Source of the DNA: an uncultured Desulfobacter sp.
GTDB lineage: Bacteria > Desulfobacterota > Desulfobacteria > Desulfobacterales > Desulfobacteraceae
Assembly (NCBI GenBank): GCA_963665095.1
Contig: OY762069.1
Span: 96,001 to 160,000 of the forward strand
Length of the DNA stretch: 64,000 nt
Direction of reading: 5' to 3'
A program made the translations under genes and the position numbers. Shown piece by piece: positions 14,763 through 45,523 of this stretch; the stretch's first letter is position 1, and each line of letters begins with the position of its first letter. The notes beneath the pieces are model-generated. The model was not told the DNA's origin. It did no database searches and was given only the letters and a program-made list of their open reading frames with translations.

Positions 14763-14814
14763 TCTTAACGGTTCAAAATCACCGGCTTGCCCGTGTGAAT
14801 TTTGTTTGTTGAAA
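14763..14814 (-). other. attC-like site (52 bp)
   Basis: TTTCAAC-AAACAA-AATTCACA-CGGGCAAGCC-GGTGATT-TTGAACC-GTTAAGA, 8 bp after the ATPase stop. Confidence 0.65.
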
Positions 14815-16039: not shown

Positions 16040-16087
16040 TTTTAACGTGAAAATCACCGGTTTATCCGGTGCATTTTCTGGTTAGAA
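16040..16087 (-). other. attC-like site (48 bp)
   Basis: TTCTAAC-CAGAA-AATGCACC-GGATAAACC-GGTGATT-TTCAC-GTTAAAA; L'' carries one extra base relative to L'. Confidence 0.8.
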
Positions 16088-17041
16088 TTAAGTATTGTGT
16101 CCCCCGAATTTCCCGCATCTCCAATCAGACCGGGCCTCTTTTTTAAAAACTGTTCTCACCTTATCCATAAAGCTTCTCAAAATAGGCGAGATCCATTTTC
16201 CCCGATACCATATCATCAAGACAGCAGTTTCAAGGGGCTCCTGTTCCCAATTCAGAGATGTCAGGTTACCTTCAGAAATCTCTGCTGCCGCTGCAATATC
16301 GGGCATTATGGTAATTCCGAGACCCTTTGAGACACACTGTTTAATCGCCTCTATACTGTTCATTTCCACTAAAGATGCTGTTTCAATTTTTTCTTGCATG
16401 AGCCACTGTTCAACAATCATCTTATAACTGCAATCATGCTTAGGTAAAAAGACGATTTCACCAGATAAATCTGTAATCAAAACGCTTTTCTTTTGGGACA
16501 GGTAATGAGTAGGGGAAGCAAACATTGCCAGAGTTACTGTTCCTAAAAACTCAGTTTTCAGTTCTGAAAAATCAACAGAGTCAGCCAACAGAAAAGCAAT
16601 GTCGGTAATTCCGGATTTAAGCTCATTGGGCAGGTTTTGATATTCACAGCTAGCCACGTCAAAGTCTATATTGGGATAGGATTTGTAAAATTCCTGTAGG
16701 ATATCAGGAAGAAAATAGGTTCCAAGGGTTTGGGGAATTCTTAAAGACAGTTTCCCTTGGGGTGTTTTTACTTCAGAAACTGTTGCCAATGCTTCTTTTT
16801 CCATCGCACAGATTTTCTGTGCATATTGTACCAGATCCCTGCCAGCCCCTGTTAATTCAATGGTTTTTCCCTTCCTCTGAAAAAGGCGCTTTCCTAACTC
16901 CTCTTCCAAAATTTTAATCTGGGCAGATATGGTGGACTGGGCATAGTTCAATGTTTCGGCAGATTTTCTAAAATTGAGCAACCTCGCCACAGTTAAAAAG
17001 GTCTTCAGGTTTCGGATCTCCAAGCAGCCCCCTCTGATCAT
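16088..17041 (-). CDS. LysR family regulator
   Basis: NFRKSAETLNYAQSTISAQIKILEEELG. Confidence 0.93.
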   Translation of the reverse strand: MIRGGCLEIRNLKTFLTVARLLNFRKSAETLNYAQSTISAQIKILEEELGKRLFQRKGKTIELTGAGRDLVQYAQKICAMEKEALATVSEVKTPQGKLSLRIPQTLGTYFLPDILQEFYKSYPNIDFDVASCEYQNLPNELKSGITDIAFLLADSVDFSELKTEFLGTVTLAMFASPTHYLSQKKSVLITDLSGEIVFLPKHDCSYKMIVEQWLMQEKIETASLVEMNSIEAIKQCVSKGLGITIMPDIAAAAEISEGNLTSLNWEQEPLETAVLMIWYRGKWISPILRSFMDKVRTVFKKEARSDWRCGKFGGHNT

Positions 17042-17930: not shown

Positions 17931-19654
17931 TAACCGGGTCGAAGCCTCGCAGTTGATTTCTTGGGTAAAAGCAGGGGAATCCTTATTTTCAAACTTAGAT
18001 TTAACAGCACAGATTCTAAAATTTGCCTGGTAAAATTGAGTGAGCATTAAGATTCTTCCTTCTACTTAATCCGGTCAGGCTTGAAAAAGAGCCGAAAAAC
18101 CTGGTACCGGAGCGGATTGCCGATACGAGTCCCTGACAGGGAACTGCCTATTTTGATATCGGTAATTGTTTCCAAAGTAAAGCTTTTTATAGTTCCCCTG
18201 ATTTAGCCGGAATTTGCTTGGCCTTGGTTTTTGGTAAGTCGTCTTTCACCACGTTGCCATGACCGTCCAGCACCAGGATCGTTATCATGTTCCCTTTGCC
18301 GCAGGCCGGGCATTGAGGCGTCTGTTCTTTCAGGGGTTCAGGATCAGGGGTATCCCGGTCATTCAATGCCTGGCGTATTTCCGATATATTTCGTCCTGCC
18401 TGCCCGTTGGCCAGAAACCCATAATATCTGATCCGATGAAAGTGTTTTGGAAGAACATGCAAAAGGAAACGATCAATGAAGCTCATTACCGGTAAAGAAG
18501 TTGTTTCCCACTTGGATTTATTCCGGGTGTTTTTAAACCAGAACTCCACAGTCTCGTTGTTAACGGATATAATCCTGTTGTTGCTGATGGCTGTTGAATG
18601 GGTGTATCTACCGATATATTTAACGACTTCGGCTGGACCTGAGAATGGTGGTTTGGAATATACCACCCAGTCTTTTGGAGCGGTATGGTACAGCCATTGC
18701 CTGAATGCGCAGGGTTTTGAAAGATGAGCCAGTTCATCCGGGATGTTTAATCGTCCTCGACCGTGGGCTGCAATAAGGCCGCTAAGGAACTTTGCCCTGA
18801 ATACATTTGAAAGCGCTTTGACCGGAAACAGGAATGTTGAGCTGTACTTGGGCTCCACCCATTCCCCATAAGTGTTTATTCCGCCTGCAGTGACAATGAA
18901 ATGGATGTGGGGATGCAGCCAGAGTTTGCCGCCCCAGGTGTGGAGGATACCGTAGAACCCGATCTTGGCTCCAAGACGCTTTGGATTCTCCCCGAATTCC
19001 AGCAGGGTCTGGGAGGCGCTTTCAAACAACAGGTCATACATTACCCGCCGGTTGAACCGGCACAAAGGGTTGAAGATATCCGGCAATGTGAAAACGCAGT
19101 GGTGATAGGACACCGGAAGCAGATCGTTGATCCTGGCCGTCACCCATCTGTGACGGGCGATATTGTTTCAACCCGGACAATGGCGGTTCCGGCAGGAGTT
19201 GTATCCTTTTTCAAGGTGGCCGCATGTGTCGCATAGCTCCCAGTGGGTGCCAAATTCTCCGCGTCGACAATGCTCGATATCGTACATAACCTTGTGTTGC
19301 CTGGGGTGCAGGCGGTGTGCTGATCTGAAGGGAGGACCGTATTTTCTAAATATATCTCCGACGCTTGGACCGGTTTCGGGTTTTTCAGGGAGCTTGGTAT
19401 GGCTGCAAAGTGTTTTCATCGGTTATCGAAGCCCGCAGCGTAGGAGAACGGGAGGCGCAGGCTGCAATGATTTATGACAGGCGTGGCATTTGCGCAGTTT
19501 GCAAATGACATGACTGGCAGAAATCTTGCGTCTGGGCGTCCCCCCGTTCTCCGGAAAAGTTTGCACCATAGATTATGAAGTCCTTATTTTATAGGCGTTT
19601 CGAGCTCTGCAGTTGGCTTCAAGATGTTGCATTCACCGTCCAGGTTTAATGTAA
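17848..19654 (-). mobile_element. Gene cassette carrying an IS91-family transposase, copy 1 (1807 bp)
   Basis: Near-identical to 37795..39420; identity ends at the GTT cores on both sides. Confidence 0.8.
18187..19419 (-). CDS. IS91-family (Y2 HUH) transposase, 410 aa if the in-frame TGA at 19168-19170 is read through; otherwise a pseudogene
   Basis: CDTC...NSCRNRHCPG*, HHCVFTLP, LHTWG, HPHIH, YIGRY, HRIRYYGFL. The two listed ORFs are in the same frame. Confidence 0.85.
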
Positions 19655-19674
19655 CGTCAAAATCTGCGGTTTAT

Positions 19675-21803
19675 GCCAGGTAGCCGGGGACCGTTACCGG
19701 TCCCAAGCCCCTTAAGAACCGGACGTGAGACTTTCACCTCATCCGGCTCAAGCATTGATAAGGCGTGTTGCCACACCCAACAGTTGTCTTCGTTTCCAAC
19801 GAGCTTTGAGATAGTCGGCCCATGCAGGATCGTACGGGTTAACATTCGCTCTAATCTTGATATGTCTGGTAAGCCGGGTCGCGCCTAGTAAAATCAGGGG
19901 TTCGGGATTACCTTTTTCCATGAATCGCCAGTCTCGACCTTTGATTCTCCGGTAATACTTGTTTTTAACCCATCCTTTAGATTTCTTTGGATGCCTTCGC
20001 CTGGCCCATTGCCATGTCATTTGCCAAAATGCATGGTCCAAATCCCCAAACACCTTCCGGCTTACGACGTGTTTGTAATAATTTGCCCAACCGCGTATGA
20101 TACTATTCAGTTTGGCAATAACAACATCGGTTCGCAGGGTTTTATTGGCATGCAGATAGTCTCTGACTTTCGCTTTTATGCGTTTAATGCTGGATTTTGA
20201 AGGTTTTATCAGAAGTTTGCCTTTGTATTTTCTGACATTGAAGCCAAGGAAATCAAAGCCATCATCAATATGTGTGATAATGGTTTTCTCTTTTGATAGT
20301 TCAAGTCCCCTTATTTTAAGGAACTCTTCGATCAAAGGCTTGACTTTATGTTTGAGCATTTCCGGAGAACGGCCCGTTACAATGAAATCATCAGCACACC
20401 TGACAAAATGAATTTTGTCAGGCTTCTTGAAGTTATCATCAAGGAGGGGCTGGATACCGTCAAGAGCCATATTGGCAAGCGTCGGTGAAATTATTCCACC
20501 CTGTGGAGTCCCTTCATTTGTCGAATTAAATATATGTTTCTCAAGATAACCGCACTTGAGCCATTGTTTTAATTTCTTCTTGTTCATGGGAATGTTTTCA
20601 TCCAACCATTTATGATCGATAAAATCAAAACAGCCTTTGATATCTGCCTCTAAAATCCAGTCAGCACTACCTTTCCGTCTTAACGCATTGTAAATCGCTC
20701 CTATGGCATCCTGGGCCGAGCGGACTTTCCTGAATCCATAGGAATGATGATCCGCTGTGGATTCAGATACCGGATCAAGCCCTAATAAATCAAGGGCCTG
20801 TTCCACCCGGTCATGCATGGCCGGTATGCCTAATGGTCGTTTCTTACCATTTTTCTTTGGGATATAAATACGTTTCAGCGGCTTAGCCTTATATTCGGGA
20901 AGATTAAGATTCTTGAGCGTTTCCCATCGCTTCCGAGGTGTATCAATTAACATATTGTCAACACCTGGGGTTCGTTTTCCACTATTGGATATTACCCGTT
21001 TGATAGCAATAAGTTTTGCCGCAAGCGAGTTGGACAGCAGCCTTTGAAGGCCGCGTACCTTTTGTTTTAATCCTTGCTTAACTGCCTTCACGATACGCGC
21101 TTGTATACGGAATACTGTCTGTCTGTGCTTATCCCAGTCAATGAGATCCCACACATTCTTCAAGCCCATACGGCCGTCAACATCATGTAATGATATCATC
21201 CATCCACACCAGTATAGTTATTCCGTTCAAATCATTTCCCGTGATTCAACACCGTGCCGGAAGTCTGCACACTTTCGTGTCCGGGCAAATTTTGAACCCG
21301 TATCTGATCCATTACAGAACAGCATTCGCTTTCTCCAGCGTTCCTCTACCCGCATCCCCATAGGCCACCCTTGCGGCTGGCTGTCCTTACGGGGAAGGAG
21401 AGATACGGGCTTACCAAGTTCCACTTTCAACACACAATGGGTTAGCGTCTGTCTATCCGCCGGAGGGATCATTGATTACGTGAAGCAACTACGGAATACT
21501 CCAACCATACCTCTTGCCTTTTGGCCCAGGCCTGTCAGCATCTTTGGCCTGTCAAACATAACGACGTTTATTAACAGTTCACATATGTTACGCATACCAT
21601 CGTTCCTAGCTCCCATCCGGGTTGATGCTCCCAGAGTTGAGGTCCTCTTACGATTATCTCTTCCGGCCATAGGCCAAGGGCTTCATTGTCATCCGGGCTT
21701 CACACAAAAACATTACTGCTAGTGCATGCCGGAGTAGAAAACTGCCGGTAATACGGCAGGTTGGGGCGAGCCCAACATTATTAAAAGCGACTTCTTGTCG
21801 CAA
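19675..21803 (-). mobile_element. Group II intron (chloroplast-like/IIB-type features)
   Basis: 5' end TTGCGACAAGAAGTCGC; domain V GAGCCGGATGAGGTGAAAGTCTCACGTCCGGTTC; domain VI ends CTACCTGGC; internal RT ORF. Confidence 0.9.
19748..21199 (-). CDS. ltrA: Group II intron reverse transcriptase/maturase without an endonuclease domain
   Basis: TPGVD, RPLGIP, YGFR, DIKGCFD, GTPQGGIISP, RCADDF, IRGWANYY, NPYDP. Confidence 0.93.
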   Translation of the reverse strand: MISLHDVDGRMGLKNVWDLIDWDKHRQTVFRIQARIVKAVKQGLKQKVRGLQRLLSNSLAAKLIAIKRVISNSGKRTPGVDNMLIDTPRKRWETLKNLNLPEYKAKPLKRIYIPKKNGKKRPLGIPAMHDRVEQALDLLGLDPVSESTADHHSYGFRKVRSAQDAIGAIYNALRRKGSADWILEADIKGCFDFIDHKWLDENIPMNKKKLKQWLKCGYLEKHIFNSTNEGTPQGGIISPTLANMALDGIQPLLDDNFKKPDKIHFVRCADDFIVTGRSPEMLKHKVKPLIEEFLKIRGLELSKEKTIITHIDDGFDFLGFNVRKYKGKLLIKPSKSSIKRIKAKVRDYLHANKTLRTDVVIAKLNSIIRGWANYYKHVVSRKVFGDLDHAFWQMTWQWARRRHPKKSKGWVKNKYYRRIKGRDWRFMEKGNPEPLILLGATRLTRHIKIRANVNPYDPAWADYLKARWKRRQLLGVATRLINA

Positions 21804-21965
21804 CCGTAGTATGTTTTTGTTAGGGGAATCTCAATTCTTATTCATTTTTGTGTTTAATCAATTCAACAGCTGTTGCATATCTTCAATAACAACCAGTAGT
21901 TGCCCTCATCCTGAACAATCCCAACCCCACCTTGATACACCTGGAAAACTTAATTAATTTTATAA

Positions 21966-22225
21966 GTGTGTAATGGCCAACAGGCAATAAGCAATATTAA
22001 TGTTTACAAACCGCGTACCCCCAAAGAAAGCGCATATTACAAGCGTGTTGAGAATCATTTTGAAGAGTTGGAACGGGTGTGGGATGATATGTATACCCCC
22101 CGATACGGCTATTGGCGAACATACGTCATGACCGTAATTTACAGATATCTCGATTGTGGAAATCTTCATATGGGGTTTGCCAGGGTCCGCTGTGAAGAAT
22201 GCGGCCATGAGTACCTCCTGGCATT
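21966..22225 (+). pseudogene. N-terminal Zn-binding fragment of a second IS91-family transposase type
   Basis: YRYLDCGNLHMGFARVRCEECGHEYLLA, after which similarity ends. Confidence 0.75.
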
Positions 22226-22240
22226 AGCATGTCGTTCAAA

Positions 22241-22420
22241 CTACACCTCCTTTTGTTATGGCATATTGAAAAATCGAATGCCGGGCTGTGTCGCTAATTG
22301 CCACAACCGCCGGGTGCTTGAGTATACACTCCACACAGATGGCGTAAAATTTTTCTTTAATGTTGTCATACCTGCTGATAACCTCTACCTGGTACTGGGT
22401 TTCCATAGGACGAGGAATAG
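22241..22420 (-). pseudogene. C-terminal fragment of an NhaR-like LysR regulator
   Basis: Manual translation QYQVEVISRYDNIKEKFYAICVECILKHPAVVAISDTARHSIF. Confidence 0.55.
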
Positions 22421-22435
22421 CGTTTACCCGTTACC

Positions 22436-22740
22436 ATGAAAAACCTTTCCCTGTATGGGTCTCTTTCCTACAACAGGTTCTACTTTGCCCAGGACATTGA
22501 TAACGCCTCCGGCGGCAAGGTTTCCGTTGACGGCCAACAGGTACCGGGTGCGCCGAAGTTTCTCGCCAAGGGGATTGTCAGTTATACAATCGGGGATTTC
22601 ACCCTGTCTCCCAGTGTAAAATACTTTTTCGAGAGATACGGCGATGTCCTTCATCGGGAGCGGATTGATGATGCGGTGATTTACGATTTCGACCTGAGCT
22701 ATGCAACGACCCTGCCTCGGTTCAAGATCAAGAAAGCCGT
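22436..22740 (+). pseudogene. TonB-dependent receptor C-terminal fragment
   Basis: NLSLYGSLSYNRF...QVPGAPK...IYDFDLSY. Confidence 0.7.
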
Positions 22741-22793
22741 CTCAAAACCTGTTGCCGATAATTTTTTCTGCTGGCCGTTTTTCAGGCGGCAGC

Positions 22794-23807
22794 CTAACCT
22801 GTAGCGCTTTTATAGATTACGGCTTTTCTATATTCGGAAGGCCTGAGTCCGTACGCTTTGAAAAAAGACGCTGCAAAATGACTTGAGCTGCAAAATCCTG
22901 ATTCATATGCAATTCGGGTCAGATCATCAGGATTTTTCTCGATCAGCTTACGGGCATAAGACAACCGCTTTTTTCGAAGGTATTCAAATACCGTACATCC
23001 GAAAACCGTCTTAAACCCTCTGGTAAGCCAGACGTGGCTCATCCCCACCATCGCGGCCAGTTCTTTGAGTGACGGCGGGGTTAAAAGCCTGCCGTCAAGT
23101 ATGTCCCTGGCCCTGTAAATCTGTTCTCGTTTTTCATGGCTCATTTGGGTGTATTTCTGATCAGGGCAGCCTTGATATACCTGCTCCAATTTTAGGGCAA
23201 TGAGTTCAAGCGCCTTGCTTTCCAGGTAGATTTTGCCGATTCTTCCCCTGTGCGCATTACTCTGAACCTGCAGAAAAGCCGTTGCCATCTCAGGCGTCAT
23301 GATGTGATTTACGTAGAAACAAGAGGAGGAGAGAGCTGTTTCCAGAACGTTATGGAATGGCCCGTCCGGCTGCTGGACAGAGGCGAGCAACTGGGCCAGG
23401 TAATCAGGGGGAACACCTATGGAAAGCGTCAGCATTTCCTGTTCTCCCGGTATGATCCGTTCGTATACAGGATCTTTTGAAAAATAGATGGACGCAAAGC
23501 CCGGCGCCAAGACCAGAGAATCAGAGTGGCAGGAATTTCGGGAAAGCGTTTGTCCCTTAATGCTGAAGACAAAATAAAACAGCGGGCCTGGCGATGCAAC
23601 TTCAGCGGTATAATCGCGATTAAATCGGCCTGAGCACATTCCCATGCCCAGGCCGTCTCCTAGCGAGACGCTTACAAAGCGGCCTGTACCGATCTGTTCC
23701 GGCAGGGGGCGGATGCGTTGGTAGGATTTTGCATAATCGTCATCAGGGACAGACGCGTTGAACCGGATATGGTTTCCGCTTTTGTCTTTGATCAGAACCC
23801 GGGGCAA
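22794..23807 (-). CDS. AraC family regulator downstream of a cobalamin riboswitch
   Basis: IYLESKALEL and IAYESGFCSSSHFAASF; TTG start with AGGAG RBS. Confidence 0.92.
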   Translation of the reverse strand: MPRVLIKDKSGNHIRFNASVPDDDYAKSYQRIRPLPEQIGTGRFVSVSLGDGLGMGMCSGRFNRDYTAEVASPGPLFYFVFSIKGQTLSRNSCHSDSLVLAPGFASIYFSKDPVYERIIPGEQEMLTLSIGVPPDYLAQLLASVQQPDGPFHNVLETALSSSCFYVNHIMTPEMATAFLQVQSNAHRGRIGKIYLESKALELIALKLEQVYQGCPDQKYTQMSHEKREQIYRARDILDGRLLTPPSLKELAAMVGMSHVWLTRGFKTVFGCTVFEYLRKKRLSYARKLIEKNPDDLTRIAYESGFCSSSHFAASFFKAYGLRPSEYRKAVIYKSATG

Positions 23808-24019: not shown

Positions 24020-24082
24020 GTCCCTTTTTTATCCGCAGAATCTGCTGGCGTATCCCTGCCACGGGTATGCGCCGGTTTCAAA

Positions 24083-24245
24083 GGCTATGGCAGGTCTTCT
24101 GACTTCCGGATCATCCTAATCTGCCGCGCCTTCCCGTCCTTAAACAGTGGCATTTTGCGGTGTTCGTCCCCGGTTACAGCGGCGGGCCCATCCCTGATTC
24201 TCACAGGGTTCCCTGTTCGGCTTTAAACAGCACCATCACCTGTAT
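24083..24245 (-). promoter_or_regulatory. Cobalamin (B12) riboswitch
   Basis: GGTGC...AGGGAA...GTGAGAATC...CCCGCCGCTGTAA...GCCACTG...GGGAAGG...AAGTCAGAAGACCTGCC. Confidence 0.93.
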
Positions 24246-24367
24246 GATTTATGAGCCATCAGATATATCCGTAAACTGCGGATACTGTCAAGTGATTTGT
24301 TAACTATTTGAATTAGTTGAAAAAATTAAATAAGTTGCAACGGAAAATCATTTTTCTTGACATTAAC

Positions 24368-34684: not shown

Positions 34685-34733
34685 GTATAACGCAAAAATA
34701 ACCGGCATCATCCGGTTCATTTTTTTGTTGAGT
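34685..34733 (-). other. attC-like site (49 bp)
   Basis: ACTCAAC-AAAAA-AATGAACC-GGATGATGCC-GGTTATT-TTTGC-GTTATAC. Confidence 0.8.
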
Positions 34734-37176: not shown

Positions 37177-37273
37177 CTTCCGCTAGTTTAAATTTTCATT
37201 AACCAGACATCTTCGAAAAAGCCGCGCAGTAAGCCCGGTCGGGTTCATTGGTTTGTTTGCTCATTGCTTATTG

Positions 37274-37877: not shown

Positions 37878-39420
37878 TAACCGGGTCGAAGCCTCGCAGT
37901 TGATTTCTTGGGTAAAAGCAGGGGAATCCTTATTTTCAAACTTAGATTTAACAGCACAGATTCTAAAATTTGCCTGGTAAAATTGAGTGAGCATTAAGAT
38001 TCTTCCTTCTACTTTATCCGGTCAGGCTTGAAAAAGAGCCGAAAAACCTGGTACCGGAGCGGATTGCCGATACGAGTCCCTGACAGGGAACTGCCTATTT
38101 TGATATCGGTAATTGTTTCCAAAGTAAAGCTTTTTATGGTTCCCCTGATTTAGCCGGAATTTGCTTGGCCTTGGTTTTTGGTAAGTCGTCTTTCACCACG
38201 TTGCCATGACCGTCCAGCACCAGGATCGTTATCATGTTCCCTTTGCCGCAGGCCGGGCATTGAGGCGTCTGTTCTTTCAGGGGTTCAGGATCAGGGGTAT
38301 CCCGGTCATTCAATGCCTGGCGTATTTCCGATATATTTCGTCCTGCCTGCCCGTTGGCCAGAAACCCATAATATCTGATCCGATGAAAGTGTTTTGGAAG
38401 AACATGCAAAAGGAAACGATCAATGAAGCTCATTACCGGTAAAGAAGTTGTTTCCCACTTGGATTTATTCCGGGTGTTTTTAAACCAGAACTCCACAGTC
38501 TCGTTGTTAACGGATATAATCCTGTTGTTGCTGATGGCTGTTGAATGGGTGTATCTACCGATATATTTAACGACTTCGGCTGGACCTGAGAATGGTGGTT
38601 TGGAATATACCACCCAGTCTTTTGGAGCGGTATGGTACAGCCATTGCCTGAATGCGCAGGGTTTTGAAAGATGAGCCAGTTCATCCGGGATGTTTAATCG
38701 TCCTCGACCGTGGGCTGCAATAAGGCCGCTAAGGAACTTTGCCCTGAATACATTTGAAAGCGCTTTGACCGGAAACAGGAATGTTGAGCTGTACTTGGGC
38801 TCCACCCATTCCCCATAAGTGTTTATTCCGCCTGCAGTGACAATGAAATGGATGTGGGGATGCAGCCAGAGTTTGCCGCCCCAGGTGTGGAGGATACCGT
38901 AGAACCCGATCTTGGCTCCAAGACGCTTTGGATTCTCCCCGAATTCCAGCAGGGTCTGGGAGGCGCTTTCAAACAACAGGTCATACATTACCCGCCGGTT
39001 GAACCGGCACAAAGGGTTGAAGATATCCGGCAATGTGAAAACGCAGTGGTGATAGGACACCGGAAGCAGATCGTTGATCCTGGCCGTCACCCATCTGTGA
39101 CGGGCGATATTGTTTCAACCCGGACAATGGCGGTTCCGGCAGGAGTTGTATCCTTTTTCAAGGTGGCCGCATGTGTCGCATAGCTCCCAGTGGGTGCCAA
39201 ATTCTCCGCGTCGGCAGTGCTCGATATCGTACATAACCTTGTGTTGTCTGGGGTGCAGGCGGTGTGCTGATCTGAAGGGAGGACCGTATTTTCTAAATAT
39301 ATCTCCGACGCTTGGACCGGAAAAGTTTGCACCATAGATTATGAAGTCCTTATTTTATAGGCGTTTCGAGCTCTGTAGTTGGCTTCAAGATGTTGCATTC
39401 ACCGTCCAGGTTTAATGTAA
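37795..39420 (-). mobile_element. IS91-transposase cassette, copy 2 (1626 bp; 181-bp deletion)
   Basis: Aligns to copy 1; the deletion lies between CCGG repeats and removes the start codon. Confidence 0.8.
38134..39320 (-). pseudogene. IS91-family transposase, 5'-truncated, with the same in-frame TGA (39115-39117)
   Basis: Protein identical to copy 1 except for the last residue and the missing N-terminus. Confidence 0.8.
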
Positions 39421-39462
39421 TGTGAAAATCACCGGTTTATCCGGTTCATTTTTTTGTTGGAA
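39415..39462 (-). other. attC-like site (48 bp; GTT core reads ATT)
   Basis: TTCCAAC-AAAAA-AATGAACC-GGATAAACC-GGTGATT-TTCAC-ATTACAT. Confidence 0.75.
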
Positions 39463-39793
39463 TTAAGCATCGTGCTCCCGGAATTTGCTGGCGAAAAGCA
39501 ATGTCCTGTCAATTACATATATTGTCCCCGGAACTCATAGCCCCCGGAACTCAAAATTTTTAAACCGTTGGTGCTGCCAAAAGACGATACTCAAGGTTCG
39601 CGCCTCCTTTACTAATCATCTTCTAACAATAGATCTTCATTTTGGTATTATATTATTCCTATAGATGCCCATAACTATAACCGCCATGGGATGATCTGGC
39701 CTTGCCAACATCCGGAATCACCCCTGATAAAATATAAAAGCAACTGAATAGCTTATTGAAATTTATATATAAAACCTGCCAAAGGAGAAACCA

Positions 39794-45428: not shown

Positions 45429-45473
45429 TATAGAAAAAGTAGATTCTACCTCCTCGTCCGCCCGAAGGGCTTA

Positions 45474-45523
45474 ATTTAACGCAAACATCTGCGGCTTGTC
45501 CGTCAGCATGTTTGTTGTTAAAT
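45474..45523 (-). other. attC-like site (50 bp)
   Basis: ATTTAAC-AACAAA-CATGCTGA-CGGACAAGCC-GCAGATG-TTTGC-GTTAAAT. Confidence 0.75.

Follow-up and report, generated by a model that had tools for sequence, protein, structure and literature searches.

A group II intron lies inside an integron attC site, in the cassette-sense orientation, in a 64,000-nucleotide (nt) stretch of the genome of an uncultured Desulfobacter sp. (GenBank assembly GCA_963665095.1, contig OY762069.1, positions 96,001 to 160,000 of the forward strand). This stretch is referred to below as the window, and its own numbering is used unless positions are given as those of the genome. The original prediction, which was made from the letters of the window, had both the coordinates of the intron and the letters of the split site right (Table 1). 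Read on the minus strand, the locus consists of CCCTAAC AAAAACATACTACGG, the intron TTGCGACAAG ... GGCTACCTGGC, and then ATAAACCGCAGATTTTGAC GTTACAT, and the intron divides a 48-bp hairpin precisely where the 5' arm ends and the loop begins. We put at about 75% the probability that the intron represents a mobile, endonuclease-less lineage of the IIB/chloroplast-like type, with the top (cassette-sense) strand of integron attC sites as its homing target.

The intron and the attC site that it divides

Matches to Rfam ribozyme models and an open reading frame (ORF) for a reverse transcriptase (RT)/maturase between them, in domain IV, identify the element as a mobile group II intron. Domain V comprises 34 nt (19749-19716, minus strand), and the likely branch-point adenosine lies 7 nt from the intron 3' end. 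The ORF scored 343 bits against TIGR04416, the NCBIfam model of group II RT/maturases (cut-off 300). A domain search of this ORF returned RVT_N, RVT_1, and GIIM only and no HNH or other endonuclease domain, as had been predicted. The intron is present as a single full copy in the genome, while its full-length relatives in other genomes (L018, L019, L020, and L043, where L numbers denote intron loci) are 88-89% identical to it. Contigs of two sequencing runs (X2 and X6) contain the intron at the same locus with 0 differences across the junctions that they cover, and those of two further runs (X9 and X11) include the intron together with the 5' arm, beyond which they diverge.

The intron DNA starts with TTGCGAC and its last letters are ...CTACCTGGC. 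The ends of the RNA thus read UUGCG...GC, as originally proposed, and deviate from the group II consensus GUGYG...AY quoted in the excerpted text of PMC7923331. Among 82 introns of the wider group with both ends called (L053, L054, and L130, which have false 5' ends, were left out by a length filter), the first and penultimate bases are G and A in 71, U and G in nine, and C and A or C and G in one each, and neither a G with G nor a U with A combination occurs. The first and penultimate bases of group II introns contact each other. Since U1 is always accompanied by a penultimate G (9/9) and G1 by A (71/71), the unusual ends are a covarying variant and not the result of a mis-called end. An intron start one base earlier was considered, as every 5' exon ends in G, and was rejected, because the unbroken paralogues of the site read CGG|ATAAA and that G is paired by the intron. 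The predicted splice joint is ...CATACTACGG joined to ATAAACCGCAG..., which would give ...ACGG|ATAAACC.

The way in which the intron reads its target could be deduced from domain I. A candidate exon-binding site 2 (EBS2) and the loop of EBS1, 7 nt of pairing each, together cover, as one uninterrupted run, the final 14 bases of the 5' flank, and the U that precedes EBS1 stands opposite the +1 A, i.e., the first base of the attC loop. The pairing between EBS1 and the corresponding intron-binding site (IBS1) of the exon covaries in eight introns: CCGTTG occurs with CAGCGG or CAATGG (L018, L019), CGTATG with CATACG (L023), CGCATG with CATGCG (L048), CAGGTG with CACCTG (L129), CCGGT with ACCGG (L127), and CCGCTT with AAGCGG (L045). 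Similarly, EBS2 and IBS2 read GGGTG and CACCC in L023, AGGTG and CACCT in L048, TAAGCGAC and GTCGCTTA in L024, AACGAC and GTCGTT in L051, and TTATTT and AAATAA in L043. The fold of domain I, which had been suggested as a check, therefore supports the pairing with contiguous complementarity of 7 + 7 nt that covaries in relatives, and the 5' junction is fixed by this complementarity.

The 5' half of the divided site aligns with the left arms of two unbroken sites, at 16.06 and 39.44 kb, which are 86% identical to each other over 69 nt. The claim that all three share the same loop proved correct: the exact 9-mer GGATAAACC is found on the minus strand at 16059-16067 and 39434-39442, in both cases in an uninterrupted site. 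This 9-mer is not diagnostic by itself, as it has 113 exact matches in the genome, only a handful of which are in hairpins. A profile of the site identified ten unbroken members in the genome, five of them in the window (14.78, 16.06, 34.7, 39.44, and 45.5 kb; all on the minus strand) and five outside it, with E values of 1e-5 to 6e-3 for the matches that had not been used in building the profile. Their folds follow one plan: YYYAAC and three unpaired bases lead into an A-rich arm, which contains one extrahelical base and has a CGG-like close; a loop of 5-6 nt, the return arm, three more unpaired bases, and GTTA... follow. One member is without a clear AAC box. The architecture of an attC, with R'' and R' boxes, an imperfect L box, a spacer, and a variable loop, can also be recognised in the split site (CCCTAAC ... 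GTTACAT), the cassette boundary G|TT of which is at 19655|19654. The attC identity of the site is borne out by these features and by the interleaving of the short sites with long attC sites on the same strand.

Evidence of such interleaving comes from other parts of the genome, where short sites occur in arrays associated with an integron integrase gene. The genome has an intI gene at its positions 910169-911113 (471.6 bits; cut-off 265) and, at 3348672-3354683 (plus strand), another that is broken up by an insertion. A naive scan of the main integron region for AAC...GTT folds gave no usable attC calls, whereas a profile built from the long attC sites beside the first integrase gene recognised 24 sites, in two arrays and a few other clusters, on one strand in each. 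Short sites at 3329055 and 3332142 (minus strand) are situated between long attCs at 3325545 and 3344632 (minus strand), upstream of the interrupted intI. Likewise, the short site at 3898886 lies between long sites at 3896181 and 3902695, and the one at 3666336 beside a long site at 3667600, in each case on the same strand. In the window itself, the attC sites form by position two clusters (14.8-21.8 kb and 34.7-39.5 kb) with no integrase gene nearby, the nearest intI being about 0.8 Mb away. Judging by sequence and fold, the short hairpins are attC sites, and their recombination by IntI is predicted. The transposase, ATPase, LysR, and AbiE-pair genes of these clusters and the R''-to-R' direction of the sites are all on the minus strand, and so is the intron, which confirms its cassette-sense orientation.

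The sequence directly downstream of the split site allows the cassette boundary to be located. It is a unit with an IS91-like transposase gene, bounded as a gene cassette and present in the genome in four copies of about 99% identity or more. The right ends of all four stop at ...CAACG|TT, with unrelated sequence beyond. Three left ends are intact and all start with TTACAT; two of them break at G|TT and the third at A|TT. The G followed by TTACAT complements the R'' box of the unit itself, ATGTAAC, at every position, as expected from a circularised cassette. Copies A and B of the unit differ at 5 of 20 nt in the hairpin upstream and at almost none of the next 104 nt, and this collapse of identity indicates a cassette boundary at the G|TT of R'. 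At the place homologous to the split site, the copy at 39.4 kb has an unbroken hairpin.

The association of the hairpin with this unit raises an alternative, namely, that the hairpin is an IS91-like terminal structure or another palindromic repeat rather than an attC, and that the intron targets that mobile element. All three unit copies with an intact 5' side are indeed directly downstream of a short hairpin, and at locus L043 the hairpin that holds the intron comes right after the gene of a 79% identical transposase. Of the ten unbroken short hairpins, however, seven flank unrelated genes (those of an ATPase, LysR, the AbiE pair, and others), the short hairpins are parts of same-strand arrays with long attCs, and the identity of the unit copies collapses exactly at G|TT. 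On these grounds we rejected the IS91 end as the identity of the site and consider this alternative highly improbable.

Relatives of the intron and their insertion sites

Relatives of the intron were gathered from 151 genomes of the same family, from one genome per species of a large collection, and from metagenome contigs. In a FastTree phylogeny of 166 distinct RTs (in effect unrooted, with local, Shimodaira-Hasegawa (SH)-like support), the window RT belongs to a clade of 14 rows with a support of 96, the sister of which is a single endonuclease-bearing RT (L129). The RT of a second sense-strand intron of the same genome is 49% identical and belongs to a separate clade of 27 rows (support 99).

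Insertion sites could be compared for 21 clade members and fragments with at least one readable flank, with L022 (masked) and L047 (contig end) left out. Twelve sites are of attC type (the window, L018, L043, L036, L040, L042, L127, L024, L049, L051, L021, and L039), and one, L026, which has only a right arm, is uncertain. The idea of a distinct attC-targeting lineage is thus supported as regards the separate clade and the prevailing type of site, mostly entered at the arm/loop junction, but not as regards exclusiveness, since four of the 21 sites are elsewhere. Four further sites (L023, L044, L048, and L055) are in one other conserved, attC-like hairpin, which has four unbroken copies in the window genome, always within integron regions. 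The four sites elsewhere (L019, L020, L045 = L050, and L128) are outside attC-type hairpins, the insertion of L128 being 38 nt past a long attC, in the loop of another hairpin.

Could the insertion in the window be a single ordinary homing or ectopic event, which landed by chance in an attC-like repeat, with no preference of the lineage behind it? The genome has only one full copy of the intron, the RT motif of this copy is mutated, and four of the 21 sites are elsewhere, all of which would fit a chance event. Such an explanation is nevertheless very unlikely, given that the attC-type sites come from several genera and metagenomes, share the same junction geometry, and have differing arms matched by differing EBS sequences.

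More weight should be given to the possibility that the lineage targets the geometry of a hairpin and not attC as such, and that it requires a stem with a 5' arm reaching up to the insertion point. Such a requirement would be similar to the stem-loop use of IIC introns, except that the cut would be at the arm/loop junction and on the top strand, and attC sites would simply be the commonest hairpins of this kind in these genomes. Minimum free energy folds of 13 restored sites (L020 was dropped because of its 3' end) place the junction directly after the last paired base of the 5' arm in nine, in at least four unrelated sequence families: the short attC, the long attC, the conserved hairpin of L044 and L048, and the site of L018. 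L023 folded differently although it is homologous to L044. The hairpins of L128 (not an attC) and L045 (outside any attC) point in the same direction. On the other hand, IBS1 and IBS2 are in the 5' arm itself and could bind the intron only when unpaired, there is no hairpin at L019, and the covariation of EBS sequences with the arms explains the position of the junction without any reading of structure. We therefore regard a requirement for hairpin geometry as a tentative alternative, doubtful on the present evidence, to homing into the attC top strand.

Several results weigh against the attC-homing lineage that we favour. The insertions in the other conserved hairpin and elsewhere suggest that the specificity may be for integron-borne hairpins or simply for sequence. 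The attC-type calls in other genomes were made by eye, from AAC and/or GTT boxes and matching arms, and the two attC profiles derived from the window genome recognised just L023 and L128 among 20 loci, i.e., they did not transfer to other genomes. In L128 EBS1 does not pair with the exon, in L020 and L036 it does so poorly, and a convincing partner of EBS2 was not found in L018, L019, L127, and L128. The left arm of the split site has three mismatches to the right arm, while its sister site at 3.332 Mb of the genome pairs fully, so that the split attC itself looks decayed. None of the contigs of runs X2, X6, X9, and X11, the only material searched for this, skips 19675-21803, and they thus contain neither an empty allele nor a splice joint. 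By cumulative GC skew (origin at about 4.66 Mb, terminus at about 1.06 Mb), the sense strand of the intron is the leading-strand template, which lends no support to a model of insertion into single-stranded DNA of the lagging strand. Finally, the enrichment in cassette arrays could reflect survival in harmless places and not targeting.

As the complementarity, covariation, position, and strand described above show, the intron RNA reads the R''-L'' arm by means of EBS1 and EBS2. Its insertion exactly at the arm/loop junction leaves the R and L boxes intact and enlarges the loop alone, by 2.1 kb. If introns of this lineage do home into attC sites, transcripts through the attC would be spliced with the help of the maturase, and the ribonucleoprotein (RNP) would reverse-splice into new copies of attC. 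With no endonuclease encoded, synthesis of cDNA would be primed by strands at replication forks. These assumed steps of splicing, reverse splicing, and fork priming draw on the known biology of the family (PMC7923331 and PMC4424553, excerpts). As the site is non-coding and away from the integrase-binding boxes, the insertion would be harmless and may travel with cassettes. No pattern of strand with respect to replication emerged, the window intron being on the leading-strand template and the copies of the sister lineage being mixed. Self-priming by a 5' arm that folds back onto the 3' arm once the first step of reverse splicing is complete was considered but not adopted, because its product would not be a sense insertion.

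At ten loci of Vibrio, Shewanella, and Photobacterium (L076, L089, L091, L095, L096, L098, L114, L116, L117, and L118), the RTs of which show 47-50% identity, the intron interrupts a very short palindrome (..YTAAC-8 to 12 nt|8 to 10 nt-GTTRRR) at its middle. The palindromes of L076 and L098 continue outward past AAC/GTT, unlike in attC sites. The conserved hairpin of L023, L044, L048, and L055, about 80 nt long (genome positions 923191, 943997, 3346627, and 3905814), is entered by two types of introns: the L023 subgroup and the introns ending at genome positions 3903564 and 3914815 insert on its opposite strands, about 20 nt apart. Relatives of about 50% identity from Bacillota and gut metagenomes (L071, L074, L078, L093, L100, L119, L147, L160, L167, L186, and L190-L199) are longer, at about 2.33-2.39 kb, with an RT of 592 amino acids (aa) in L119. 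All of them split the same conserved coding site (...FD.YLW|QT.ENKQ.FI...), which represents homing into a gene, unlike the attC habit of the window clade.

Comparison with other introns of integrons

Among solved RTs, that of the window intron is closest to chain C of PDB 6ME0 (479.5 bits, E value 9.5e-143, residues 15-472), and scores 133 bits with LtrA and 123 bits with IIC RTs. 6ME0, like 6MEC and 8FLI, is a group IIB intron RNP. Its RT has 562 aa, vs. 483 aa in the window, and the reading of the target by EBS/IBS pairing corresponds to the general IIB scheme. The label "chloroplast-like" of the original prediction is supported by these scores only in an indirect way. A grouping with RTs of the chloroplast-like 1 (CL1) class is tentative, with indirect support from the score with 6ME0 and from the 46-53% identity of the window RT to intron RTs of Shewanella and Vibrio, a Shewanella CL1 intron being named as the nearest relative of UHB.I2 (see below).

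IIC-attC introns, according to excerpts of PMC3001079 and PMC7923331, enter the bottom strand at TTGT/T in R'' and point against the cassettes. They have an EBS1 of 3-4 bp, no EBS2, and a stem-loop upstream of the insertion point. The window intron shares with S.ma.I2 and its relatives (Leon et al. 2010, PMC3001079, excerpts) the absence of an endonuclease, the specialisation for attC, and the occurrence in integrase-less attC clusters. It differs from them in its sense orientation and its place at the loop, as the original prediction had rightly noted: it is in the top strand, within the hairpin, where the 5' arm gives way to the loop (L''/loop junction CGG|ATAAA). A further difference is its EBS1 and EBS2 of 7 + 7 nt. 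Neither its RT scores nor the 34-nt domain V, nor the presence of EBS2, is that of class C, and the insertion is not the bottom-strand, antisense one at TTGT/T of R''.

More similar is UHB.I2 (Sonbol and Siam 2021, Mob DNA 12:8, PMC7923331), presented in the excerpted parts of that paper as an endonuclease-less CL1/IIB1 intron with the ends UUGCG..GU, inserted in the cassette sense in a cassette array, immediately after an attC, and with a Shewanella CL1 intron as the nearest relative. The window intron likewise lacks an endonuclease domain, lies in the sense orientation in a cassette array, and combines U1 with a penultimate G. Compared by description only, the two differ in that the window intron is inside the attC and UHB.I2 after it, no role of the arm/loop junction being described in those excerpts. 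The sister lineage in the same genome (928461-930707 and degenerate copies) also comprises sense-strand, non-IIC introns of integron arrays; these are located outside the hairpin, 6-7 nt past the G of R', have the ends GUGCG...GAU, and form a separate RT clade.

In the literature on group II introns, attC sites, and integrons that we searched, only UHB.I2 adds a relevant case to the IIC-attC introns, and we found no description of an insertion inside attC at the L''/loop junction and none of a clade that inserts there repeatedly. A 2015 review attributes insertion into attC to class C introns (PMC4424553, excerpts). The window intron exemplifies a second, little-described way for introns to colonise integrons, by a separate clade whose insertions lie within attC on its sense strand and follow ordinary EBS/IBS rules, legible from the sequence. 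It is conceivable, though we hold it to be doubtful, that this IIB/CL1-like clade has a route of its own, in which the top-strand L'' arm is read by EBS1 and EBS2, hairpin geometry is needed, and insertion always takes place at the arm/loop junction. With the boxes left intact, the intron would then be carried along when IntI moves the cassette, or, with the arms 2 kb apart, would freeze or fuse cassettes. If so, attC would be a target common to three independent intron lineages, each with its own strand and position. The system is a natural one for asking whether hairpin DNA aids or hinders reverse splicing, and it could show whether recombination still occurs at an attC with a 2-kb loop. It also provides a natural example of covariation at the U1/G(-2) boundary. 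In integron annotation, split attC sites will be missed and cassettes mis-bounded.

Condition of the window copy and neighbouring features

The active site of the window RT is altered: CADD stands in place of YADD (Table 1). Of 129 RTs fitting the pattern of this motif, 122 have Y and six F at the first position, and C occurs only in the window copy. In the near-identical copies of runs X6, X9, and X11, the base at 20397 gives TAT (Tyr), while run X2 agrees with the window. The replacement of Tyr by Cys suggests that the window copy is probably a resident, unable to move by itself. Its attC is degenerate and part of an attC cluster that has no integrase, and the IS91-like transposase cassette follows downstream.

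Table 1. Positions of the intron, of its parts, and of attC sites and the adjacent cassette in the window
Feature	Position	Strand	Remarks
5' half of split attC	21825-21804	-	R'' CCCTAAC, then AAAAACATACTACGG: spacer and L'' arm ending ...ACTACGG; also IBS2 AAACATA and IBS1 CTACGG
Group II intron	21803-19675	-	2129 nt; starts UUGCGAC, ends CUACCUGGC; Rfam matches
Ribozyme domain-I segment	21760-21609	-	RF02012 group-II-D1D4-7, 109.4 bits (cut-off 34), model 1-151 of 151
EBS2 candidate UAUGUUU	21560-21554	-	In 10-nt unpaired stretch (alifold, 14 introns); complements AAACATA, 5' exon -13..-7
EBS1 loop UUCCGUAGU	21496-21488	-	9-nt loop, covarying closing stem (14 aligned relatives); CCGUAGU pairs ACTACGG
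RT/maturase ORF	21199-19748	-	483 aa; RVT_N, RVT_1, GIIM; between the two Rfam matches
TGT codon, CADD in place of YADD	20396-20398	-	RT active-site motif
Domains V and VI	19751-19675	-	RF00029, 60.8 bits (cut-off 40), full model length
3' half of split attC	19674-19649	-	ATAAA CCGCAGATTTTGAC GTTACAT: loop ATAAA, L' arm CCGCAGATTTTG, spacer, R' GTTACAT
IS91-like transposase unit bounded as gene cassette	19654-17848	-	Own 89-bp attC at 17930-17842; in-frame TGA 19170-19168
Short attC	14766-14802	-	After AAA_14/DUF4143 gene
Unbroken short attC	16043-16090	-	Loop GG ATAAA CC; after LysR gene
Short attC	34687-34730	-	After AbiEi/AbiEii pair
Long-type attC	37190-37257	-	E value 1.2e-6; same type as in integron arrays
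Unbroken short attC	39418-39465	-	Upstream of second IS91-like unit copy; empty-site homologue of split attC
Short attC	45471-45513	-	Profile match and fold

The transposase of the cassette has Zn_Tnp_IS91 and Y2_Tnp domains and scores 397 bits against NF033538 with the in-frame TGA read through. The TGA is shared with the copy at 38134-39330 (minus strand) and falls on the second Cys of a CPGC zinc motif, which is present in 9/9 motif-bearing orthologues from other genomes (70-87% identical). A perfect 9-bp hairpin (19135-19158, minus strand) starts 9 nt past the TGA, at the tenth base, and owes its perfection to two codon changes that the orthologues do not share. A selB gene is present in the genome (347.8 bits, above the cut-off). 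The TGA-bearing transposase could be a selenocysteine protein or could carry a shared nonsense mutation. Copy A of the unit contains in its 5' region about 180 nt (19373-19551) that are absent from copy B, and contigs of run X2 show both forms.

A second association of such an intron with a transposase cassette was found in genome G080 (L043/L211, contig 1, about 2507175-2510918), where the 79% identical IS91-like transposase is followed by its own attC-like hairpin and the 88% identical intron interrupts this hairpin where its arm meets the loop, as in the window. Upstream of the split attC in the window, the DNA looks like debris: a truncated N-terminal fragment of an IS91-type transposase with Zn_Tnp_IS91 only (21966-22439, plus strand) is followed by a TonB-receptor-like tail (22436-22804). 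Further on, a cobalamin riboswitch (24072-24252, minus strand; 113.9 bits) is located upstream of an AraC/TonB-receptor region, and the window as a whole is rich in TonB receptors, AraC regulators, and O-methyltransferases.

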